From Candidatus Woesebacteria bacterium (lineage in GTDB: Bacteria > Patescibacteriota > Microgenomatia > UBA1400 > MFAQ01): 64,000 bases of DNA. A model generated the notes under the pieces. That model saw only the letters and a list, made by a program, of their open reading frames with translations, did no database searches and had not been told where the DNA came from. The stretch covers positions 446,218-510,217 of the forward strand of contig DAOORK010000001.1 in assembly GCA_035389185.1 (NCBI GenBank), read 5' to 3'. Position numbers and translations under genes: made by a program. Position 1 is the stretch's first letter, and each line of letters starts with the position of its first letter. Shown in pieces: positions 6,605-51,118 of the stretch.

Positions 6605-7888
6605 TTAATCCAAGAACTTATCGTAACTGTACATATAGAGCTGTGAGTTAACAGACTTGAGAATTTCGAGCACAACCGAGACAACAATGAGAATACTGGT
6701 ACCCCCCATTGAGAGAGAGGTGATACTAGTTGCCTTGGAGATAATCGAGGGGAAAATAGCCACGAGACCGAGGAAACCGGCACCAACTAAAGTAATCCTT
6801 TTGAGAACGAAATTTAAGTAGTCGACGGTGTTGGGCCCTGGACGGATACCGGGGATAAAAGAGCCTGAAGAACGAAGATCTTTGGCAATTTTTTCCGGGT
6901 TAAAAACCACGGCAGTATAAAAATAAGTAAAGGCAACAACCAGAAAGAAATAAATACCGTTGTAAACGGGACTGCCGGAAGCAAAAAGATTGTTGAGAGA
7001 GTTAGCAAAATTGACAACTCCCGGATTGTTAACATTTGCCAGTACCCGACTGAGAAGACTGGGAATGAGCATAAAAGAGACGGCAAAAATAATGGGGATG
7101 ACGCCTGCTTGGTTTAAGCGAAGAGGTAGTGACCCTCCCGAAACAGCACTGTAGGAGGCTTGGCCTCGACGAGCGGACTGGATCGGAATTTCTCTTGTGG
7201 CTTCACCAACACGGACAATGGCGTAAACGGCGGCTAAAGCAAAGATGAAGAAGATTAGATAGGAGAAAATCTTGGTTTGATCCATGGCGGTAAAGGTCTG
7301 AACTACATCGATTGGCAAACGGCAGACAATACCAACAAAGATGATCATGCTGATGCCATTTCCCAACCCGTAGTCGTTGAGCTGTTCTCCAAGCCAGATT
7401 AAAAGACAGGTACCGGCGGCAAGAGTAAAGATAATTGAAGCTAATTGAAGTGGGTCGGCCGTTGTTACCAGGTTTTCTTTGTTTAGAATAAAAACGATAG
7501 CGAAAGCCTGAAGGAAACACAAGGGAACGGTGAGAAGACGAGTGTATTGATTGATTTTTTGACGACCGTAGTCCCCTTCTTTTTGGAGGGCTTCCAGTTT
7601 GGGAATTACCATACCCAACATCTGAATAATAATGGAGGCATTGATGTATGGATTGAGACCGAGAGCCATAATGGAGAAGTTTCCCATGGTACCGCCGGAG
7701 AAAATATCGAGAAGGGAAAGAACTGCCGAGGAATCAAAAAGGTTTCTTAGGGCAACAAGATTGATTCCCGGAGCCGGGATATGAGCAATTAAACGAAAAA
7801 TGGCAATAATAATGGCCGTAAAAATCAGACGACGACGAAGGTCTTTGATTTTCAAAACTGCACGAAGGGGTGCTAATAAATTGTTCAT
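6605..7888 (-). CDS. secY: preprotein translocase subunit SecY (start trimmed to internal [14 protein letters not shown])
   Basis: 10 TM segments, SecY signature; ORF track start 7966 adds 26 non-SecY residues overlapping the terminator hairpin, so ATG at 7888 preferred. Confidence 0.92.
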
Positions 7889-42385: not shown

Positions 42386-44167
42386 TTAAACCTCTAGAAG
42401 TATGGCGATGACCAATGGACGTCTTTGGGTGTGATCGAAAGCGAACTTCTCCAACTGGCCTTCAATCTTTTTGCGAATGAATCCCCAGTCTGTTGCTTGG
42501 CCTTTGAGATCTTTGAGACAGGCGTAAACATGTTTGCGGGCGTCGTTGATTAACTCTTGTGACTCTTTTTGGTAAACAAAACCACGAGAGATAATTTCGA
42601 TGTCGCCGGCAACTTGGGAGTTGTCTTTACGTAAAGGAACAATGGCGAGGAGAACTCCATCTTCGGACATTACTTGACGATCACGAAGAACAACTGTGCC
42701 AACGTCGCCAATTCCCAGACCATCAACATAGACGTTTCTGGTTTCGAATTTGGGGCCTTCTTTAATAATATGGTTTTCAATAATGATCGACTGACCTTCA
42801 GAAAGAATAGTAACGGCATCCGGACTTAGGTTCATGTCTTTGGCGAGGTTTTTGTAGAGCATCATGTGACGAAGGTCGCCTCCGATGGGGATGATGTTTT
42901 TGGGTTTGATAAGTCGGGCGAGAAGGGCAAGATCTCCCTTGTAACCATGACCGGAAACGTGGAGGTGTTCAGAAGTACCGGAGTAAATGACATCGATATT
43001 GTTTTTGTACAGAGTATCCATGAGGTTAAAAATATCAGCATCGTTACCAGTGCCCGGAATAGCAGTGGAACTAATGATGACCTTATCCCCTTTCTTCAGG
43101 CGAACCATACGGTGCTCGCCGTTGGCTAGTCTATGCATGGCCGAACCTGCCTGACCCTGTGAACCGGAGACAATCATGGTGACTTGACCTGCCGGAAGAG
43201 TGTTGGCCTGTTGGGGTTTGATAAAGACACCTGCGGGAACTTTCATGAAACCAGTTTTGATGGCCGCTTCAATATTTTGCTCCACAGAACGTCCAATGAT
43301 AGCCACCTTGCGGTGATATTTCATCGAAGCTTCGATCGCAATTTGAAAACGAGAAATGGAAGAGGACATGCCGGTGAAGATGACTTTACCAACAGTATTG
43401 CGGATTTCATTATCGATAGCGGTAACAAGAGATCTTTCCGAAGGACAAAAACCTTCTTTCTCGATACCCAGACAGTCGGTGAGCAACAAATCGACACCTT
43501 CAACACCGGCGGCAGCCATACTGCCAAGATCTGGGGGAAGGTTGTCGATGGGGGTGAGATCGAACTTGTAATCAGCACCATGGTAGACAGTACTATTGGG
43601 GGTTTTGATCAAAAGATGAAAACAGTCCGGAACAGAGTGGGTGGAGTGAATAAGTTCAATATGAAAAGGACCAAGGTCTAAGTGCCCTTCAACAGTGGTC
43701 ATACGATTGGGAATGCCAAACTCACGAACTTTGATCTCGGCCATGGCAATGGCGAGTCTGCCGCCAAAAACTTCGACATTTTTGAGTCGGGGAAGAATGT
43801 AGGGAAGACCGCCGATATGATCCATGTGAGGATGGGTAACAACGATACCGAGCAGATTTTTACCTGGTTTTTCCAGATAACTAATATCCGGGATGACAGA
43901 GTCAACACCAAGGGCATTATCCTGGGGGAAACCCATACCGCAGTCGACAACGAGTTGGTCGTCGCCATATTCGTAAACATACATATTTTTGGTGACCGAA
44001 CCGACACCGCCAAGAGGAATAATTTTTAAACTCGGGAAATGAGAAATTGGTTTCTCGGGAATTGGTTTGTAGGCCGAAACGGGTTTCTCCGGGTTCTGTT
44101 TGAAACCAAACCTAGGTTTTTCCGTTTTTGGCATAGCTGATAACTGGGGATTTTTATTTATATCCAT
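42386..44167 (-). CDS. rnj: ribonuclease J (beta-CASP metallo-beta-lactamase) with about 50-aa N-terminal extension
   Basis: HPHMDHIGG motif, beta-CASP and C-terminal domain; 593 aa. Confidence 0.9.
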   Translation of the reverse strand: MDINKNPQLSAMPKTEKPRFGFKQNPEKPVSAYKPIPEKPISHFPSLKIIPLGGVGSVTKNMYVYEYGDDQLVVDCGMGFPQDNALGVDSVIPDISYLEKPGKNLLGIVVTHPHMDHIGGLPYILPRLKNVEVFGGRLAIAMAEIKVREFGIPNRMTTVEGHLDLGPFHIELIHSTHSVPDCFHLLIKTPNSTVYHGADYKFDLTPIDNLPPDLGSMAAAGVEGVDLLLTDCLGIEKEGFCPSERSLVTAIDNEIRNTVGKVIFTGMSSSISRFQIAIEASMKYHRKVAIIGRSVEQNIEAAIKTGFMKVPAGVFIKPQQANTLPAGQVTMIVSGSQGQAGSAMHRLANGEHRMVRLKKGDKVIISSTAIPGTGNDADIFNLMDTLYKNNIDVIYSGTSEHLHVSGHGYKGDLALLARLIKPKNIIPIGGDLRHMMLYKNLAKDMNLSPDAVTILSEGQSIIIENHIIKEGPKFETRNVYVDGLGIGDVGTVVLRDRQVMSEDGVLLAIVPLRKDNSQVAGDIEIISRGFVYQKESQELINDARKHVYACLKDLKGQATDWGFIRKKIEGQLEKFAFDHTQRRPLVIAILLEV

Positions 44168-44411: not shown

Positions 44412-44699
44412 TTATTCTCTAGCTCTTGTGAGAACACCTCTTGTCTCTAAGGCAATATAGATCATCGACTTCATTAACTTTTGTTCGGGTGACCCACTCT
44501 TTGCAATCTCCTCTAAGTTAACTAATTTCCACCCTTTGTTCTCCTTGTCAGCGTTAATTTCACCTGCACTCACAAAGTAATGATCAAACAATTCGTTTGG
44601 TTTAGTGATAAAAATAGCTTCATTTTCTTTGACAACAACACCAAACGTATCTCCAGTCTCAGACGTGAAACTATCTCCAACTTCAAACACAATCTTCAT
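44412..44699 (-). CDS. hypothetical small acidic protein (95 aa)
   Basis: ATG preceded by GGAGGA 4 nt upstream; own terminator; no recognisable domain. Confidence 0.6.
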   Translation of the reverse strand: MKIVFEVGDSFTSETGDTFGVVVKENEAIFITKPNELFDHYFVSAGEINADKENKGWKLVNLEEIAKSGSPEQKLMKSMIYIALETRGVLTRARE

Positions 44700-44787: not shown

Positions 44788-45852
44788 TTACCACTTGGGG
44801 AGGAAGGACTTGATGTTCTCAGGAGTAAGAGATACCGTTTTAACTTGGCCGGTAACAAGAAGCATGGCTACTTTACGAACAACTCCTTCAATGGTGCGGT
44901 TTAGAGTACGAATACCAGCATCATAACCTAGAGGCCGGATGATTGTTGGCCACAAAGCCGGGTCGATGGTGATGAGAGTCGGGTCCATACCGGCTGCTTC
45001 TAAGGCTTTGGGGAACAAATAATCCTGGGCAATATGGGATTTCTCATCATCGGTGTAAGAAGGCATTTGAATCGGTTCAAGACGATCCATAACAGCCGTC
45101 GCTAGATTGCCGGTGTTGTTGGCCGTGGCAATAAACATGACCTCGGAGAGATCGACAGGGTAATCGATGAAATGATCGAGGAAACGATTGTTTTGAGTGG
45201 GGTCAAGGAGCTCAACCAAAACACCCATGATGTCGGCTCTGGCGCTTTCGGTAACACGATCAATTTCGTCAAGAAGAATAATAGGGTTTTTGACACCTGA
45301 GTCACAGAGAGCTCTAACAATATAACCAGGTTCAGCTTCAAGATGAAGACGAGACTCACCGCGAAGGTCTTTGGCTGAACCAAGCCCTCCAAAAGGAATA
45401 CGGGCGATGGGACGGCCGAGAGCTTCTGAAAGCGCATAGGCAAAGGTGGTTTTTCCGGTACCAACCAAGCCGACGAGACAGATAATAGGAGCGCGAGCAA
45501 CACCCATATTACGTGACGAACGGAGTTTAAGAACAGACATGTACTCAAGAATACGTTCTTTGACATCGTTCATTCCGTAGTGATGTTTATCGAGTGTATC
45601 TTTGATCGAAACTAGATCAATTGGTCTTTCTACCCGTTTGTTCCATGGTACTTTGGACACCCAGTTGATGTAGTGGCTTAGTTTTTCGTATTCTTCCGAG
45701 AAAAAACCCTGACTCGACAGACGCTCAAGACGAGCGATCATATCTAAAGTATTGTCTTTTAGCTCGGGAGGTACCTCAATCGTCTGGATCTTCTGACGAA
45801 GATCGTCAAGCATAGAGGAAGGTTGGGTTGGTGCCTGGGCAGAAGGATCCAT
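44788..45852 (-). CDS. Lon-like AAA+ ATPase lacking both the N-terminal LON domain and the C-terminal protease domain (354 aa)
   Basis: collinear with Lon residues about 230-590: pre-AAA helical region (HYGMNDVKERILEYMSVLKL), Walker A GLVGTGKTT, Walker B ILLDEID, sensor TANN, YTDDEK...GIRTLNRTIEGV; ends before S-K protease domain. Confidence 0.8.
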   Translation of the reverse strand: MDPSAQAPTQPSSMLDDLRQKIQTIEVPPELKDNTLDMIARLERLSSQGFFSEEYEKLSHYINWVSKVPWNKRVERPIDLVSIKDTLDKHHYGMNDVKERILEYMSVLKLRSSRNMGVARAPIICLVGLVGTGKTTFAYALSEALGRPIARIPFGGLGSAKDLRGESRLHLEAEPGYIVRALCDSGVKNPIILLDEIDRVTESARADIMGVLVELLDPTQNNRFLDHFIDYPVDLSEVMFIATANNTGNLATAVMDRLEPIQMPSYTDDEKSHIAQDYLFPKALEAAGMDPTLITIDPALWPTIIRPLGYDAGIRTLNRTIEGVVRKVAMLLVTGQVKTVSLTPENIKSFLPKW

Positions 45853-45882: not shown

Positions 45883-45908
45883 CAAAAAGCCCCGGTTCCT
45901 CCCGGGGC
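45883..45908 (-). terminator. intrinsic terminator (GCCCCGG-TTCCT-CCGGGGC + U-run on - strand) after pnp
   Basis: 7-bp stem 45889-45908, A-run 45883-45888. Confidence 0.7.
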
Positions 45909-45940
45909 TTTCATAAGCTAAGGCCTGTACTAATTGTACA

Positions 45941-48139
45941 TTAACGACTGTCTCTGAAGTTACGGAAGTTTGGGCGACTACCACCATTTCTTTGACCACC
46001 ACGATCTTCACCAAATCTTGGTCTATCCCCGCCTCCCATTGGACGTTCGGCTCTTATGGGAGCTTCACCTTCCTTGAGCATGGTGAGATTGACACGACCC
46101 ATGGAGTCAACTTCGTAACAACGAACCTCGACTTTGTCACCGATCTTCATTGCTTTGAAGACTTCCGGCTGAACCTGGGAAATATGAACAAGGCCATCTT
46201 TTCCGGGGATGATATTCACGAAAGCACCAAAGGCTTCGATTCTGGCGACAGTGCCTTGATATGTTTTACCAACTTCGGCTTCGGCAACGATGGAGTCAAT
46301 ATAGGCGCGAGCGCCGTCGACTTTGGCTTGATCGGAACCGGTAACGGTGACAGTGCCATCATCTTCAATATTAACTTCAACCAAGAAATCATCTTGAATC
46401 TGATGGATGATCTTGCCACCTGAACCAATAACGTCACCGATCTTGGCAACCGGGACTTTGGTGGAAACAATCTTGGGAGCATATTGGGAAAGTTTCTCAC
46501 GAGGAGCGGCGATGGCTTCGGTCATAAGTTCAAGAATCTTCAATCTGGCGCGCTTGGCTTGTTCAACAGCTTGGGTTAGAACTTCGGCTTTGATTCCAGT
46601 GACTTTGACATCCATCTGAAGCGCGGTAATACCGTCGACTGTACCAGCAACTTTGAAGTCCATATCACCAAGGTGATCTTCAAGACCACAGATATCGGTT
46701 AGAGTAACAAACTTATCTCCTTCGGTAATAAGACCCATGGCTGTACCAGCAACAGGTTTTCTGATTGGAACACCAGCGTCCATGAGGGACAAAGTGGAAC
46801 CACAAATAGAAGCTTGAGAGGTGGAACCGTTTGAAGACATGACTTCGGAAACAATACGAATGGCGTAAGGAAACTCATTTTGGTCAGGAAGAACCGGAAT
46901 AAGAGCTCTTTCGGCTAGTGCACCGTGACCAACTTCACGACGGCCAGTACCTGGGCGCCCTACCTCACCGGCAGCAAAGCCAGGCATGTTGTAGTGATGC
47001 ATGTAGCGCTTGGTGGACTCGCCTTTCATACCATCGATAAGCTGTTCACGGGCTGGTGAACCAAGGGTGACGACTGAGAGAACATGAGTGAGACCTCTTT
47101 GGAAGAAAGCCGAACCGTGGGTTCGAGGAAGAAGACCAACTTCAATGTTTATTGGGCGAATCTCTTCGACATCACGACCGTCTGGACGCTGTTTTTTCTC
47201 AATAATATTTTTTCGAGCTAAGTCACGAAGCATATTGTCGGCTGTTTCAGCGATATGGCTAGGATTATGTTCGGGGTGAGCGGCAATAATGGAATCGACT
47301 ATTTCTCTTGCTTGAGTACCGGTTTTGGTGGCTTCGTTTTTAAGAATTGCTTCCAAATCACCAATCTCATCGGCAACAAATTTTTTGATTTCAGGATCCA
47401 TTTCTATGCGGGCAATGGTACGTTTGGTTTTGCCATGTTCTTTGGCGAATTTTTCGATACCACTGGCGATGGTGTCGATGTATTCCTGAGCGAAAGCCAA
47501 AGCACCGGTCATTTTTTCTTCCGAGACTTCATTGGCACCAGCCTCAACCATACAGATACCACCTTTGGGTCCGGAAACAACCAGGTCCATTGGAGAGGTA
47601 TTTTTTTGTTCTTCTGTGGGGTTGACGATGTATTCTCCTTCGGGAGTCATACCAATACGAACTGCACCAACAGGTCCAGCCCAGGGATAGTCGGAAATGG
47701 AGATGGCAGCGGAAGCGGCAACGATGGCAAGAATTTCTGGTTCTTCAACTCCGTCTATAGAAAGAGGAGAGACAAGAACTTGAACTTCGTTTCTGCTGGA
47801 TTGATCGAAAAGAGGTCTTATGGAACGGTCGATTACGCGACCGGTGAGAATTTCGGTTTCTGCGGGTCGGCCTTCACGTTTGATAAAACGACTGGAGCTA
47901 ATGACTCCACCTGCATAAAGTTTTTCTTGGTATTCGATAGAAAGAGGAAAATAATCAATTCCTTCTTTAACACGATTTGTGGCTACACAAGAAGCAATAA
48001 CGACGGTGTCGCCGCATCTGACGGTCACAGAACCTGAGGCCTGGGCGCCAAAACGACCGGTCTCGATTGTAATAGTTTTACCATTGAGGACAATGGTGGT
48101 TTGAGGATGTGTCATCCTGAATCCTTTCTTTCGCGCCAC
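45941..48139 (-). CDS. pnp: polyribonucleotide nucleotidyltransferase (PNPase) with RGG-rich C-terminal tail
   Basis: two RNase PH domains, KH and S1 domains; 732 aa. Confidence 0.96.
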   Translation of the reverse strand: MARKKGFRMTHPQTTIVLNGKTITIETGRFGAQASGSVTVRCGDTVVIASCVATNRVKEGIDYFPLSIEYQEKLYAGGVISSSRFIKREGRPAETEILTGRVIDRSIRPLFDQSSRNEVQVLVSPLSIDGVEEPEILAIVAASAAISISDYPWAGPVGAVRIGMTPEGEYIVNPTEEQKNTSPMDLVVSGPKGGICMVEAGANEVSEEKMTGALAFAQEYIDTIASGIEKFAKEHGKTKRTIARIEMDPEIKKFVADEIGDLEAILKNEATKTGTQAREIVDSIIAAHPEHNPSHIAETADNMLRDLARKNIIEKKQRPDGRDVEEIRPINIEVGLLPRTHGSAFFQRGLTHVLSVVTLGSPAREQLIDGMKGESTKRYMHHYNMPGFAAGEVGRPGTGRREVGHGALAERALIPVLPDQNEFPYAIRIVSEVMSSNGSTSQASICGSTLSLMDAGVPIRKPVAGTAMGLITEGDKFVTLTDICGLEDHLGDMDFKVAGTVDGITALQMDVKVTGIKAEVLTQAVEQAKRARLKILELMTEAIAAPREKLSQYAPKIVSTKVPVAKIGDVIGSGGKIIHQIQDDFLVEVNIEDDGTVTVTGSDQAKVDGARAYIDSIVAEAEVGKTYQGTVARIEAFGAFVNIIPGKDGLVHISQVQPEVFKAMKIGDKVEVRCYEVDSMGRVNLTMLKEGEAPIRAERPMGGGDRPRFGEDRGGQRNGGSRPNFRNFRDSR

Positions 48140-48214: not shown

Positions 48215-48505
48215 TTATTCTGCGGAGTCGCGCAACTGACTGTTAATGTTTAGAGACTTGGTAACTTCGAGATAGTCTTTGGTGTTTGATTTGGCTAGGT
48301 AGTTTAAGAGACGGCGTCTCTTGGAGATGATTTTCAATAAACCACGACGGGAGTGATTGTCCTTTTTGTGAACCTTGAGGTGGCCGGTGAGTTCTTCGAT
48401 TTGAGAAGTAAGAAGGGCAATTTGCACGCGAGGAGAACCGGTGTCTTTATCACTGGCGGCGAATTTTTTGATAATGTCGATTTTTATTTCTGATTTAAGA
48501 GCCAT
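48215..48505 (-). CDS. rpsO: 30S ribosomal protein S15 (bS15), start trimmed to MALKSEIK
   Basis: DTGSPRVQIALLTSQIEELTGHLKVHKKDNHSRRGLL; ORF-track start 48649 adds 48 non-S15 residues. Confidence 0.9.
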   Translation of the reverse strand: MALKSEIKIDIIKKFAASDKDTGSPRVQIALLTSQIEELTGHLKVHKKDNHSRRGLLKIISKRRRLLNYLAKSNTKDYLEVTKSLNINSQLRDSAE

Positions 48506-48552
48506 ATCGGTGTGTATTGTAACAGATATATATATTTTTGCCAAGAAGGAAG

Positions 48553-48795
48553 CTAGTTTTCTTTGTCGTGAGTGGTTTGGGACATTTCGATAAAAGTGGG
48601 CTTGGGAGTAGGATTTACTGGTTCTGGTGTCATACCCATGTTTTTCCAAAATTTTACTTCATCTGGATTTAACATCACAATCTGATCTATTGATGTTTGT
48701 TTTACGGGATCTGATATTTGCTGATAAGAACCATCGGGATTCCTTAGTTTGAAGGGAAGTGTGATATCTGATTGTTTTTCGCCTGTTTCGCCCAT
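48553..48795 (-). CDS. hypothetical small protein (80 aa)
   Basis: ORF only; no SD seen; occupies the slot where rbfA/truB normally sit. Confidence 0.35.
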   Translation of the reverse strand: MGETGEKQSDITLPFKLRNPDGSYQQISDPVKQTSIDQIVMLNPDEVKFWKNMGMTPEPVNPTPKPTFIEMSQTTHDKEN

Positions 48796-48813: not shown

Positions 48814-49713
48814 TTAATCGTTCTTACTGTTGACGCGGAATATTTTGGGTTTACTCCAGTCGGAAGGCACCGGGGCGTCTTCCTCTTGAGGTAAAGGAAT
48901 GTTTTCTTCCACCTGGGGAAGTGACGATGTTTCCGAGGCATCGAAAAATGGAGGTTGAGAAAAACGAGGTGCCGGTATTTCTTCACGAGGTACTGTAGCA
49001 CCGGAGCGCATGAGGAAAGCAATGGCGGCAAAAGTATCAGCAGTGAGACGGCCGGCGGTAAGGTTGTTGGTCGAGTCGTATATATTGTTCAGGAGTTTTT
49101 GAGCAACTTCGATATTAGTATTGAGTTCTATGATTTCCAAAAGAGAAGCAATCAACTCTGAAAATGAACCACAGTTTTTATGAAAAGAGTTTCCGGTAAA
49201 GGCTGCTGGTTTGAGGGAGTTGCTTAGACTAATGATATTGGCGTTATCTAGGAAATGTTTTTCTTCAGCATAGATTTTGCCAAGCTCTTCGAGTGAGCTA
49301 ACCCCAAGGGTAATGACAAGATCGGCATTTGCACCGGAGTATGAGAACTTAACGTCTCTAACCTCGGGGACAGGAGCGTTCACTTTGGGTTTGACAAGTA
49401 AGTAAAACTTCCCGTCTTCACGAACATCGTAATCGACTTTATCAAGATCCTCTTCTTTGTAATCAAAAGAGATAATCAAATTACGACTGCCGATGGTGTC
49501 AGGAATTTCTGCGATGCCGGCGATTGGTGAGTCAAGATGAACTTCACTTCCGCAGCCGAGTTTGGAGACTTTTCCTGATTCGGCCAGAGAAAGATGGAGA
49601 CAAGTAGCGGCCGTGATAAGATCTTTTCCAGGATCGGAAGGGAGAATAACGATAATAGACTTGGCAGTATCAACTAAGTTTTTGATAGTTGAGAAATTGT
49701 TTTTGTCTTCCAT
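48814..49713 (-). CDS. DHH-family (NrnA-like) protein with degenerate catalytic motifs, no DHHA1 domain
   Basis: architecture collinear with the NrnA DHH domain but DHH replaced by SLS and DTG by STN; acidic Pro-rich C-terminus; directly downstream of infB where nrnA/rbfA lie in other bacteria. Confidence 0.55.
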   Translation of the reverse strand: MEDKNNFSTIKNLVDTAKSIIVILPSDPGKDLITAATCLHLSLAESGKVSKLGCGSEVHLDSPIAGIAEIPDTIGSRNLIISFDYKEEDLDKVDYDVREDGKFYLLVKPKVNAPVPEVRDVKFSYSGANADLVITLGVSSLEELGKIYAEEKHFLDNANIISLSNSLKPAAFTGNSFHKNCGSFSELIASLLEIIELNTNIEVAQKLLNNIYDSTNNLTAGRLTADTFAAIAFLMRSGATVPREEIPAPRFSQPPFFDASETSSLPQVEENIPLPQEEDAPVPSDWSKPKIFRVNSKND

Positions 49714-49714
49714 A

Positions 49715-51118
49715 TTATTTTTCTATGGTTGTGGCGGTCATTATATCACCAGCTTTGATGTCAATGGAAGGCGAAAGAACAAGACCACATTCCTGATCTT
49801 TTTTAGCTTCCTGAACATCTTCTTTACCAACTTTTAAAGAGGTGATTTGGGAATCTTTGACAGTGTCACCAATACTAATTTTGCCAGAGGTTACTTGACA
49901 GCCATAAACGATGGTGCCGCCAAAATTGAAAACTTTGAGGATTTTTGCTTCACCGGTGATGATGACTTTGGGAGCGGCTTGGGCATCTTTTTGTTCTTTG
50001 AGTTCTTTGAGGTAGTCAAAAAGCTGATAAATAATACGGAAATTACTGAATTTGACATGTTCCACTTCGGCTAGTTTGGTCACTGAAGCGGGCATTTTAA
50101 CATTGAAGCCGAGGATCTCAGCACCGGTGGCAATAGCGGTCTCAATGTCGGTGTCTGTAACCTGGCCAACAGAACTTTCGACAATATTTGCTTGATCTTG
50201 AATACTATCTACAATAGCTTCGAGTGAACCTTGAACGTCGGCCTTGAGAACAATAGTTGGTTTTTCTTCATTGATGACATCAGAAGCACCAGAAGTTGAT
50301 TTTGTCACCTTGTCCGAGCAGGGCTCGCTGGTAATAATGTCTCCAACGCTAGGAACTTTGGAAAAACCAATCACTTGAAAGGGGGTAGAAGGAATAGCCT
50401 TGTCCAAAAACTTTGCTGAGTAATCTATCATGGAGCGGATTTTGCCAAAATCGGTTTTTCCATCAAAAAGAGGATCATTTTTGACAAAAGTACCGCTTTT
50501 TACCAGAAGAGTAGCGAGAGGTCCTTTTTGAGGGTGCATGGAAGACTCGATGACAAGTGCGGTGGCCGGACAAGCATCTGAGTTATCTTTGAGTTCTTCA
50601 AGTTCAGCCAGGAGCAAAATAATTTCAAGAAGTTCATCAACTCCTTCACCGGTTTTGGCTGAGATATTTACGATCGGGACATTGCCTCCATAACCTTCAA
50701 CAAAAACACCTTCGTTGGCAAGATCGGTTTTGACTCTTTCGGGATTAACACCAGGGAGATCGGTTTTGTTGACGGCAACAACAAAAGGAATGCCGGCAGA
50801 CTTAATATGTTCGATAGATTCTTTGGTTTGGGGCATAACTGAGTCGTCGGCGGCCACGATTAAGATAGCCACATCGGCGGCTTGTCCACCACGACGACGC
50901 ATAGCTGAAAAAGCGGCATGCCCAGGAGTATCAATAAAAGTAATTTTTTTATCATTATGCTCGATCTGGTATGCACCGATAGCTTGGGTAATACCACCAA
51001 TTTCGCCAGCCGCAACCGTCGCATGACGTATACGATCTAAAAGAGATGTCTTCCCGTGGTCGACGTGCCCGAGGATAGTAACCACCGGAGGCCTGGTGGC
51101 ATAAGTTGAGTCCGGCAT
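49715..51118 (-). CDS. infB: translation initiation factor IF-2, short form (467 aa; G domain plus beta-barrels, no N-terminal domains)
   Basis: [21 protein letters not shown]. Confidence 0.95.
   Translation of the reverse strand: MPDSTYATRPPVVTILGHVDHGKTSLLDRIRHATVAAGEIGGITQAIGAYQIEHNDKKITFIDTPGHAAFSAMRRRGGQAADVAILIVAADDSVMPQTKESIEHIKSAGIPFVVAVNKTDLPGVNPERVKTDLANEGVFVEGYGGNVPIVNISAKTGEGVDELLEIILLLAELEELKDNSDACPATALVIESSMHPQKGPLATLLVKSGTFVKNDPLFDGKTDFGKIRSMIDYSAKFLDKAIPSTPFQVIGFSKVPSVGDIITSEPCSDKVTKSTSGASDVINEEKPTIVLKADVQGSLEAIVDSIQDQANIVESSVGQVTDTDIETAIATGAEILGFNVKMPASVTKLAEVEHVKFSNFRIIYQLFDYLKELKEQKDAQAAPKVIITGEAKILKVFNFGGTIVYGCQVTSGKISIGDTVKDSQITSLKVGKEDVQEAKKDQECGLVLSPSIDIKAGDIMTATTIEK

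Follow-up and report, generated by a model that had tools for sequence, protein, structure and literature searches.

A Lon-type AAA+ ATPase without a protease domain, conserved between pnp and rnj in CPR bacteria

ClpX and HslU, which belong to the HCLR clade of AAA+ proteins, are single-module unfoldases encoded apart from their protease, and polypeptide threading by AAA+ proteins makes use of a pore loop of the aromatic-hydrophobic-Gly type. In LonA, the protease (P) domain also contributes to oligomerization. The ATPase of Lon can perform assembly and chaperone work without proteolysis, as is known from proteolytically inactive Lon, namely the active-site mutant of yeast Pim1. Lon is defined as a chain in which an AAA+ motor and a protease are fused, and the current classes LonA, LonB, LonC and LonBA all require a protease domain; in the classification of the family, every Lon protease has an A domain with a P domain after it (PMC9569914). 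Limited proteolysis of E. coli Lon yields a stable, ADP-binding fragment, EcLon(235-584), whose AAA+ modules are packed into an open helical hexamer (PMC6722904), and in LonC (Lon-like-Ms, from Meiothermus/Thermus) the protease is kept while the ATPase is dead (PMC3391209, PMC13069640).

The window, by which we mean the whole 64-kb stretch of DNA analysed here, carries on its minus strand a gene whose 354-aa product is collinear with the central part of Lon only, as the initial annotation had proposed. The open reading frame runs from ATG to TAA, is bounded by an in-frame stop upstream and cannot be extended in its frame, in agreement with the clean start and stop claimed for it (Table 1). Pfam recognizes an AAA domain (PF00004) at residues 124-261, followed by a Lon_lid domain (PF22667), and the top matches in a sequence search of the PDB are all Lon (E ~1e-69), with residues 13-353 of the query corresponding to Lon ~244-580. 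When E. coli Lon was compared with the window by tblastn, a single AAA-module match was obtained, in which EcLon 254-579 aligned with window positions 45801-44800 at 37% identity (E 2e-65). Alignment to Lon profiles, which had been suggested as a means of delimiting the protein, places it at positions 252-568 of the 795 positions of the NCBIfam model lon (TIGR00763) and nowhere else (E 6e-92); the score of 309.4 bits falls under the curated cut-off of 608.05, NF008053 scores 237 against a cut-off of 891, and the protein reaches the cut-off of no curated NCBIfam family. Neither PADLOC nor NCBIfam returned a match to BrxL.

In an AF2 model (pLDDT 82) the protein is composed of a three-helix bundle, an alpha/beta nucleotide-binding domain and a helical lid, preceded by ten variable residues modelled with low confidence. 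The bundle, residues 11-67, represents the C-terminal part of the HI(CC)/NTD-3H region of LonA (EcLon ~250-305). Foldseek placed human LONP1 first among the structural matches, followed by the Lon proteins of Y. pestis, E. coli and M. taiwanensis, with a TM-score of ~0.77. Sequence families, PDB matches and fold comparison thus all describe a Lon-type AAA+ module with a Lon lid, and we confirm that the protein matches LonA over ~250-579 only, that is, over the three-helix bundle, the AAA+ alpha/beta domain and the lid. A defence (BrxL) or phage origin was considered and set aside: PADLOC gave weak generic AAA matches only, the best of them to DolB (E 1e-6), and the sole strong PHROG match is to a full-length Lon-like family.

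Table 1. Positions of the Lon-like gene, its neighbours and the parts of its product in the window
Feature	Position	Strand	Basis or remark
Stand-alone Lon-type AAA+ ATPase gene (354 aa)	44788..45852	-	Pfam, NCBIfam, PDB search, tblastn, AF2, Foldseek
N-terminal three-helix bundle, residues 11-67	45652..45822	-	AF2 helices 11-24, 29-47, 51-67; aligned to Lon 244-300
Walker A GLVGTGKT, residues 128-135	45448..45471	-	K134 = EcLon K362; Lys in 251/251
Pore-loop 1 ESRLHLEAEPG, residues 166-176	45325..45357	-	Alignment to Lon
Walker B IILLDEID, residues 191-198	45259..45282	-	D and E in 251/251
Pore-loop 2 region VTESARADIMG, residues 200-210	45223..45255	-	G434 -> A, P436 -> I; aromatic at EcLon 432 position lost
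Sensor-1 TANN (N245 = EcLon N473) to trans Arg finger R257 (= EcLon R484)	45082..45126	-	Each 251/251
Lon lid, alpha-helical small domain, residues 286-338	44839..44997	-	Carries sensor-2 R315 (44908-44910)
C-terminal tail FLPKW, residues 350-354, conserved	44791..44805	-	Ends at Lon AAA-to-protease linker (EcLon ~579-585)
Terminator-like hairpin after pnp	45885..45912	-	33 nt upstream of Lon-like ATG
pnp (polynucleotide phosphorylase)	45941..48139	-	Conserved upstream neighbour, same strand
rnj (RNase J)	42386..44167	-	Conserved downstream neighbour, same strand
95-aa acidic orphan ORF, pI 5.0	44412..44699	-	Variable slot, Lon-like gene to rnj

Neither of the domains that enclose this module in LonA is encoded by the gene. 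The LON N-terminal domain (PF02190) has no Pfam match in the protein, whose alignment to the lon profile begins at position 252, and the S16 Ser-Lys protease domain is absent, the chain ending at the equivalent of EcLon ~579-585. Searched by tblastn with the N, AAA and P parts of E. coli Lon, the flanks of the gene contain no N- or P-domain remnant, which speaks against simple pseudogenization; the best P-domain match anywhere in the window has an E of 0.58, and a weak N-domain match (E 0.002) lying inside rnj was taken as chance. An HMM made from six Lon protease domains likewise matched neither the ORFs of the window nor its six-frame translation. The immediate surroundings are those described in the initial annotation, with the pnp stop at 45941 and its hairpin upstream and the small acidic ORF downstream, and they leave intergenic spacers of 88 nt on either side of the gene, which are too short to conceal a lost domain. 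The search was extended to 80 related loci with 10 kb on each side, where tblastn matched only EcLon ~250-579 and the P-domain HMM matched nothing. No protease gene is a conserved neighbour in these 80 and seven further loci (within 10 kb on either side), and Pfam annotation of the genes in five loci of other CPR subgroups includes no protease family. The view that no protease domain is encoded nearby, and that the gene encodes a stand-alone Lon-derived ATPase, is therefore borne out by Pfam, NCBIfam, the PDB search, tblastn and the P-domain HMM.

This short architecture is not peculiar to one genome. Eight independent contigs (among them JAKQJP010000175.1 of GCA_029561095.1) encode the identical protein, and all of the 120 best homologues, which stem from Microgenomates and Collierbacteria and are named "AAA family ATPase" or "Lon protease" in the databases, are 310-455 aa long (nearly all 351-375) at identities of 65-91%. 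When a single genome was scanned for each species, relatives turned up in at least 557 species-level Microgenomates genomes, the best 80 of which belong to Collier-, Woese-, Shapiro-, Gottesman-, Beckwith-, Chisholm- and Cerribacteria. An exhaustive search of representative sequences added more short relatives that lack the protease, at 38-52% identity, and a profile made from the short relatives retrieved 120 proteins of 342-456 aa that contain only AAA-type and Lon_lid domains and carry the names of Dojkabacteria, Nomurabacteria, Saccharimonadales and Patescibacteria. The chain ends 1-9 residues past the same aromatic residue (F/Y350) in 249 of 251 proteins, with tails that are conserved by subfamily (LPKW in Microgenomates, of the MPEGIGTLS type elsewhere), and many members possess N-terminal extensions that are disordered and of low complexity. 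Fusions to RNA-binding domains do not occur among the homologues listed.

The gene is under strong purifying selection, pairwise dN/dS being 0.047-0.072 against relatives at 80-90% identity, a range at which dS is near saturation. Midpoint rooting of a first neighbour-joining (NJ) tree was uninformative. NJ analysis of the AAA+ module gathered 250 of 252 protease-less sequences in a single unmixed clade, outside which fell an incomplete Lon fragment from Deinococcus and one member on a long branch; a second NJ sample placed all 69 protease-less sequences in a single clade. The shared end points and the single clade together point to one ancient truncation followed by vertical inheritance across the phylum. 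A close full-length ancestor from CPR was sought as well: among the nearest protease-bearing Lons, those that bear a name are of Deinococcus and Eubacteriales, and none of the nearest, named or not, is especially close.

Comparison of 251 protease-less family members with 81 full-length Lons reveals that the ATPase site has been preserved and the pore rebuilt. The residues equivalent to EcLon K362, D423, E424, N473, R484 and R542 are each present in 251 of 251 family members, and the protein of the window accordingly keeps all of its ATPase catalytic residues (K134, D195/E196, N245, R257 and R315). Judged from its sequences, the family passes every test for a catalytically competent AAA+ ATPase of the HCLR clade. 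Its Walker A reads GL.G.GKT as opposed to GPPGVGKT in Lon, and P357L in this motif is one of several family signatures, the others being D387S, R395S and T536G.

The pore loops, in contrast, differ from those of Lon. The Lon pore-loop-1 motif T-Y-[IV]-G-x-[ML]-P-G has given way to a loop that is acidic and specific to the family, so that T-Y-I-G-S-M-P-G of E. coli Lon corresponds to L-H-L-E-A-E-P-G in the window protein, with Y398 changed to H170, G400 to E172 and M402 to E174. The position of Tyr398 is Tyr in 79 of the 81 full-length Lons; in the 251 family members it is H in 120 (all of them of the Microgenomates type), F in 31, Y in 27, S in 21 and N in 15. At the G400 position, Gly is found in 76/81 full-length Lons as against 15/251 family members, 229 of which have E or D, and the M402 position, mostly M or L in full-length Lons, is E in 246 of 251. 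Pore-loop 2 has been altered too, G434 being replaced by A, S or M, P436 by I or V, and the aromatic residue common at position 432 being lost. Some threading ability may persist in those members, about a quarter of the family (58/251), that keep F or Y at the Tyr398 position.

The gene lies in a cluster encoded on one strand, which in the window comprises nusA, a short infB, an unknown gene of 299 aa, rpsO, pnp, the Lon-like gene, an orphan ORF, rnj, ftsK, a RodZ-like HTH gene and alaS, and which follows the pattern nusA-infB-X-rpsO-pnp-[gene]-(udg)-rnj-ftsK across CPR. Of the 80 related loci, 62 have pnp upstream (on the same strand in 58 of 59 that could be scored) and 65 have rnj downstream, without exception on the same strand; fewer than 150 nt separate pnp from the gene in about half of the loci that could be scored, and the same order recurs in loci of the Nomura-, Dojka- and Saccharimonadales type. 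What lies between the Lon-like gene and rnj varies from locus to locus: a family-4 UDG, an ATP-grasp-like gene on the reverse strand, a NUDIX gene or the orphan ORF. Exclusive linkage to pnp or to rnj is not supported, since at breaks of synteny the gene follows either neighbour (rnj alone in six loci, pnp alone in three). Nor did clustering of the ORFs of the 80 loci reveal a conserved partner next door, as only housekeeping neighbours emerged; inspected by eye, three conserved clusters that lie between the gene and rnj and have no counterpart in the window look from their sequences like family-4 UDG (25 loci), the reverse-strand ATP-grasp-like protein (15) and a phosphoesterase (7). The 95-aa acidic ORF of the window, which has a strong promoter-like site of its own at 44775-44747 and its own terminator at 44393-44370, is an orphan and was rejected as a conserved partner. 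The location thus shows an old, stable housekeeping site among genes of RNA metabolism and translation, and a specific partnership is not proven by this context.

Taken together, these observations establish that the Lon-like gene encodes a Lon-type ATPase that is intact, under selection and devoid of a protease domain. As to its function, we lean, with modest confidence, towards a vertically inherited, protease-less descendant of LonA that would act as an ATP-dependent remodeller, chaperone or disassembly factor and would engage basic clients through its acidic pore. The protein would assemble as a ring or spiral oligomer and cycle ATP as the Lon motor does, because the invariant Arg finger acts across the subunit interface; oligomerization without a P domain is deduced here only from this conserved Arg finger and from the crystal packing of the E. 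coli fragment. Unfolded hydrophobic polypeptides are most likely not threaded for degradation, given that the protease chamber is gone, that the Thr-Tyr-Ile/Val-Gly grip motif has become an acidic loop and that pore-loop 2 has lost its Gly and Pro. By way of speculation, basic proteins of the ribosome or associated with RNA would be the most plausible clients, considering the position of the gene in the nusA-infB-rpsO-pnp-[gene]-rnj cluster. This link to RNA and the ribosome is weak, as the gene order is ancient as a whole block and the gene stays with pnp or with rnj where the block is broken.

Other readings of the gene have to be weighed against this one. The initial annotation had raised the possibility of a recently truncated pseudogene and that of a full-length Lon disrupted by a sequencing-error frameshift. 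Apart from the truncated architecture itself, nothing favours a pseudogene or an assembly or frameshift artefact of lon, and both are refuted by the eight contigs with the identical protein, by boundaries that recur in hundreds of genomes, by an architecture of 342-456 aa conserved across CPR with 249 of 251 common end points, by a dN/dS of about 0.05 and by the invariant motifs; as tblastn and the P-domain HMM find no remnant of either domain in any frame of the window, and as the spacers measure just 88 nt per side, we assign a practically negligible probability to an origin of this kind. A further suggestion, that of an unfoldase partnering with another protease, would amount to a split Lon, in which a protease ring encoded by another gene (an S16 P domain standing alone, or some other peptidase) receives the ATPase in trans, in the manner of HslUV or ClpXP, with the C-terminal tail of the FLPKW or MPEGIGTLS type serving as the docking element. 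The ATPase site is intact, the chain ends exactly at the linker between the AAA and P domains, and the short tail is conserved within subfamilies, all of which would suit such a partner; moreover, ClpX and HslU of the same clade do work in two-component fashion. However, the tail varies between subfamilies, no Lon P domain was found by tblastn or HMM in the window or within 10 kb of the 80 Microgenomates loci, the five gene tables from other CPR subgroups contain no protease, and the three neighbour clusters look by eye like non-proteases. With no conserved protease neighbour in the 80 and seven loci, with acidic residues in place of the pore-loop-1 threading motif and with pore-loop 2 altered, this suggestion is not supported and we hold a split Lon to be rather unlikely.

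It is also conceivable that the module binds RNA or DNA, as the alpha-domain of the Lon AAA+ module can, and that, as an accessory ATPase of a degradosome-like kind, it modulates PNPase or RNase J. Such a role would fit the fact that in most loci, and in several CPR subgroups, pnp and rnj flank the gene immediately and share its strand, as well as the fact that the E. coli fragment to which the entire protein corresponds was deposited in the PDB (6n2i) as "DNA-binding ATP-dependent protease La". Yet adjacency need not mean function where the whole block from nusA to ftsK is syntenic; variable genes (udg, NUDIX or the orphan ORF) are inserted before rnj, the gene is found with either neighbour where synteny breaks, and no listed homologue has acquired an RNA-binding domain. 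An acidic pore in a protein with a pI of 5.5 also argues against direct threading of nucleic acids, and we consider a role of this kind quite improbable. Very doubtful in our view is a nucleotide switch that forms no ring, that is, a monomer or dimer acting as an ATP-gated adaptor or regulator. It would be in keeping with the loss of the P and N domains that drive hexamer formation, the P domain by its contribution noted above and many members having only disordered, low-complexity extensions at their N-termini. LonA's N-terminal region, too, contributes to oligomerization (PMC6722904). Against this, a trans Arg finger kept in 251 of 251 proteins makes sense only with an active site shared between subunits, and the corresponding fragment of E. 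coli Lon is packed into a helical hexamer.

A protease-less remodeller of LonA descent, the reading that we prefer, can be extended into a bolder proposal, which we regard as possible, if on the whole unlikely: a CPR-wide, Lon-derived ring ATPase with an acidic pore at the pnp-rnj site would represent a new class of AAA+ remodellers for basic clients associated with the ribosome or with RNA, would perhaps be the sole Lon homologue of these cells, and would imply that Lon proteolysis has been given up throughout the phylum. In the searchable literature on Lon in CPR, Patescibacteria, Microgenomates or Saccharibacteria, and on Lon without a protease, we found no description of the family. Its recognition would bear on several fields. 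A motor-only family that is strongly selected, spread across a phylum and rebuilt in its pore suggests that the Lon ATPase was recruited to a non-proteolytic job; for the study of AAA+ proteins it offers a natural minimal Lon motor, in which one may ask how a ring assembles without a P domain and what an acidic pore loop grips; and for CPR biology it adds a conserved, uncharacterized housekeeping protein that is at present mis- or under-annotated. The label "Lon protease" is unsuitable for it, because the protein lacks both the N and the P domain, scores below the curated cut-off and has no canonical pore loop, and where that label is used the proteolytic capacity deduced for the reduced CPR genomes is overstated.

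Of the systems described so far, LonA (E. coli Lon, human LONP1, M. taiwanensis Lon) is homologous to the window protein over ~250-579, at 37% identity to E. coli Lon, and shares with it the three-helix bundle, the AAA+ alpha/beta domain, the Lon lid, Walker A and B, sensor-1, the Arg finger and sensor-2. LonA possesses in addition a LON substrate-binding domain, a long coiled-coil helix and the S16 Ser-Lys protease, all of which are missing from the family, and its pore-loop 1 reads Tyr-Ile/Val-Gly where the window protein has His-Leu-Glu followed by Ala-Glu; the Gly and Pro of pore-loop 2 are lost too. BrxL and LonB/LonBA are, like the 354-aa protein, Lon-related AAA+ modules. However, BrxL acts in the setting of BREX defence, whereas the Lon-like gene sits in a housekeeping setting with pnp and rnj adjoining, and LonB/LonBA have a membrane-anchor insertion within or before the AAA+ module as well as a P domain, whereas the Lon-like protein aligns with LonA without a gap from Walker A to Walker B, with no sign of an anchor insertion in the module, and has no P domain. 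ClpX and HslU resemble it as motors encoded apart from a protease, but their pore loops are aromatic, their docking elements are defined (IGF loops, C-terminal tails), and their protease genes are usually adjacent; the Lon-like family has an acidic pore loop, and no protease is its conserved neighbour in the 80 and seven loci. The inactive Pim1 is a full-length point mutant made in the laboratory, while the family has arisen by natural domain loss. Almost exactly co-extensive with the natural 354-aa protein is EcLon(235-584) (PDB 6N2I), which, however, was cut artificially from a protease, has canonical pore loops and is not a natural, selected gene product. LonC, finally, is the mirror case, with an active P domain and a degenerate ATPase, and the Lon-like family, with an intact ATPase and no P domain, is its natural counterpart.

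The interval between the gene for the stand-alone Lon-like ATPase and rnj is occupied in the window by an acidic orphan ORF of 95 aa, which is equipped with a GGAGG Shine-Dalgarno sequence, a promoter-like site and a terminator of its own. Its product found zero matches in Pfam, NCBIfam, PADLOC and PHROG, and no homologue was found in the 80 related loci, which are those around the best 80 of at least 557 species-representative genomes with a relative of the Lon-like gene. This slot is variable, as elsewhere it accommodates a UDG gene, a NUDIX gene or an ATP-grasp-like gene on the reverse strand. On the other side of the Lon-like gene, an unannotated 320-aa gene is inserted after pnp in a Saccharimonadales-labelled genome (L085, 6955-7917).

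Residues 29-109 of the E. coli Lon N-domain weakly match window 43112-43381 (-) by tblastn (28% identity, E 0.002 in a small database), within the RNase J metallo-beta-lactamase region of rnj. We considered a remnant of the Lon N-domain at this site and take the match as chance.

Features of the window discussed here
Feature	Window position	Strand	Remarks
95-aa orphan ORF	44412-44699	-	acidic, pI 5.0; between Lon-like gene and rnj
Promoter-like site of 95-aa ORF	44775-44747	-	sigma-70-like, 11/12
Terminator of 95-aa ORF	44393-44370	-	its own
rpsO	48215-48649	-	mechanical ORF, 144 aa, TTG start
299-aa protein gene	48814-49713	-	between infB and rpsO
infB	49715-51118	-	short IF-2, 467 aa

Outside the window, three proteins stood at the top of the search of representative sequences with the Lon-like protein when ranked by summed score, namely P0121 (1675 aa), P0123 (1233 aa) and P0125 (1157 aa). 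In each of them a single S16 protease domain comes after two or three Lon-type AAA+ modules in tandem; judged by this architecture, they would be candidate multi-motor Lons.

Many related loci, L007 and L049 among them, are typical CPR loci in species-representative MAG records titled 'uncultured Pseudomonadales', 'uncultured Gammaproteobacteria', 'Spirochaetia bacterium' or 'Candidatus Bathyarchaeia archaeon', and these taxonomic labels look wrong or like placeholders.

The IF-2 of the window lacks the N-terminal region, its GTPase domain standing right at the start, and the related loci likewise encode a short IF-2 without this region (496-533 aa). Because the S15 domain spans only residues 56-135 of the rpsO ORF and the product in the public record (L087) measures 96 aa, the true rpsO start must lie inside this ORF. 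The same record calls an extra 80-aa gene (7058-7300) between the 299-aa gene and rpsO. The 299-aa protein, for which there was no match in Pfam or PHROG, is kept between infB and rpsO in 52 of the 80 Microgenomates loci; other CPR subgroups hold unannotated proteins of 219-442 aa at this position, which in other bacteria is occupied by rbfA and truB.
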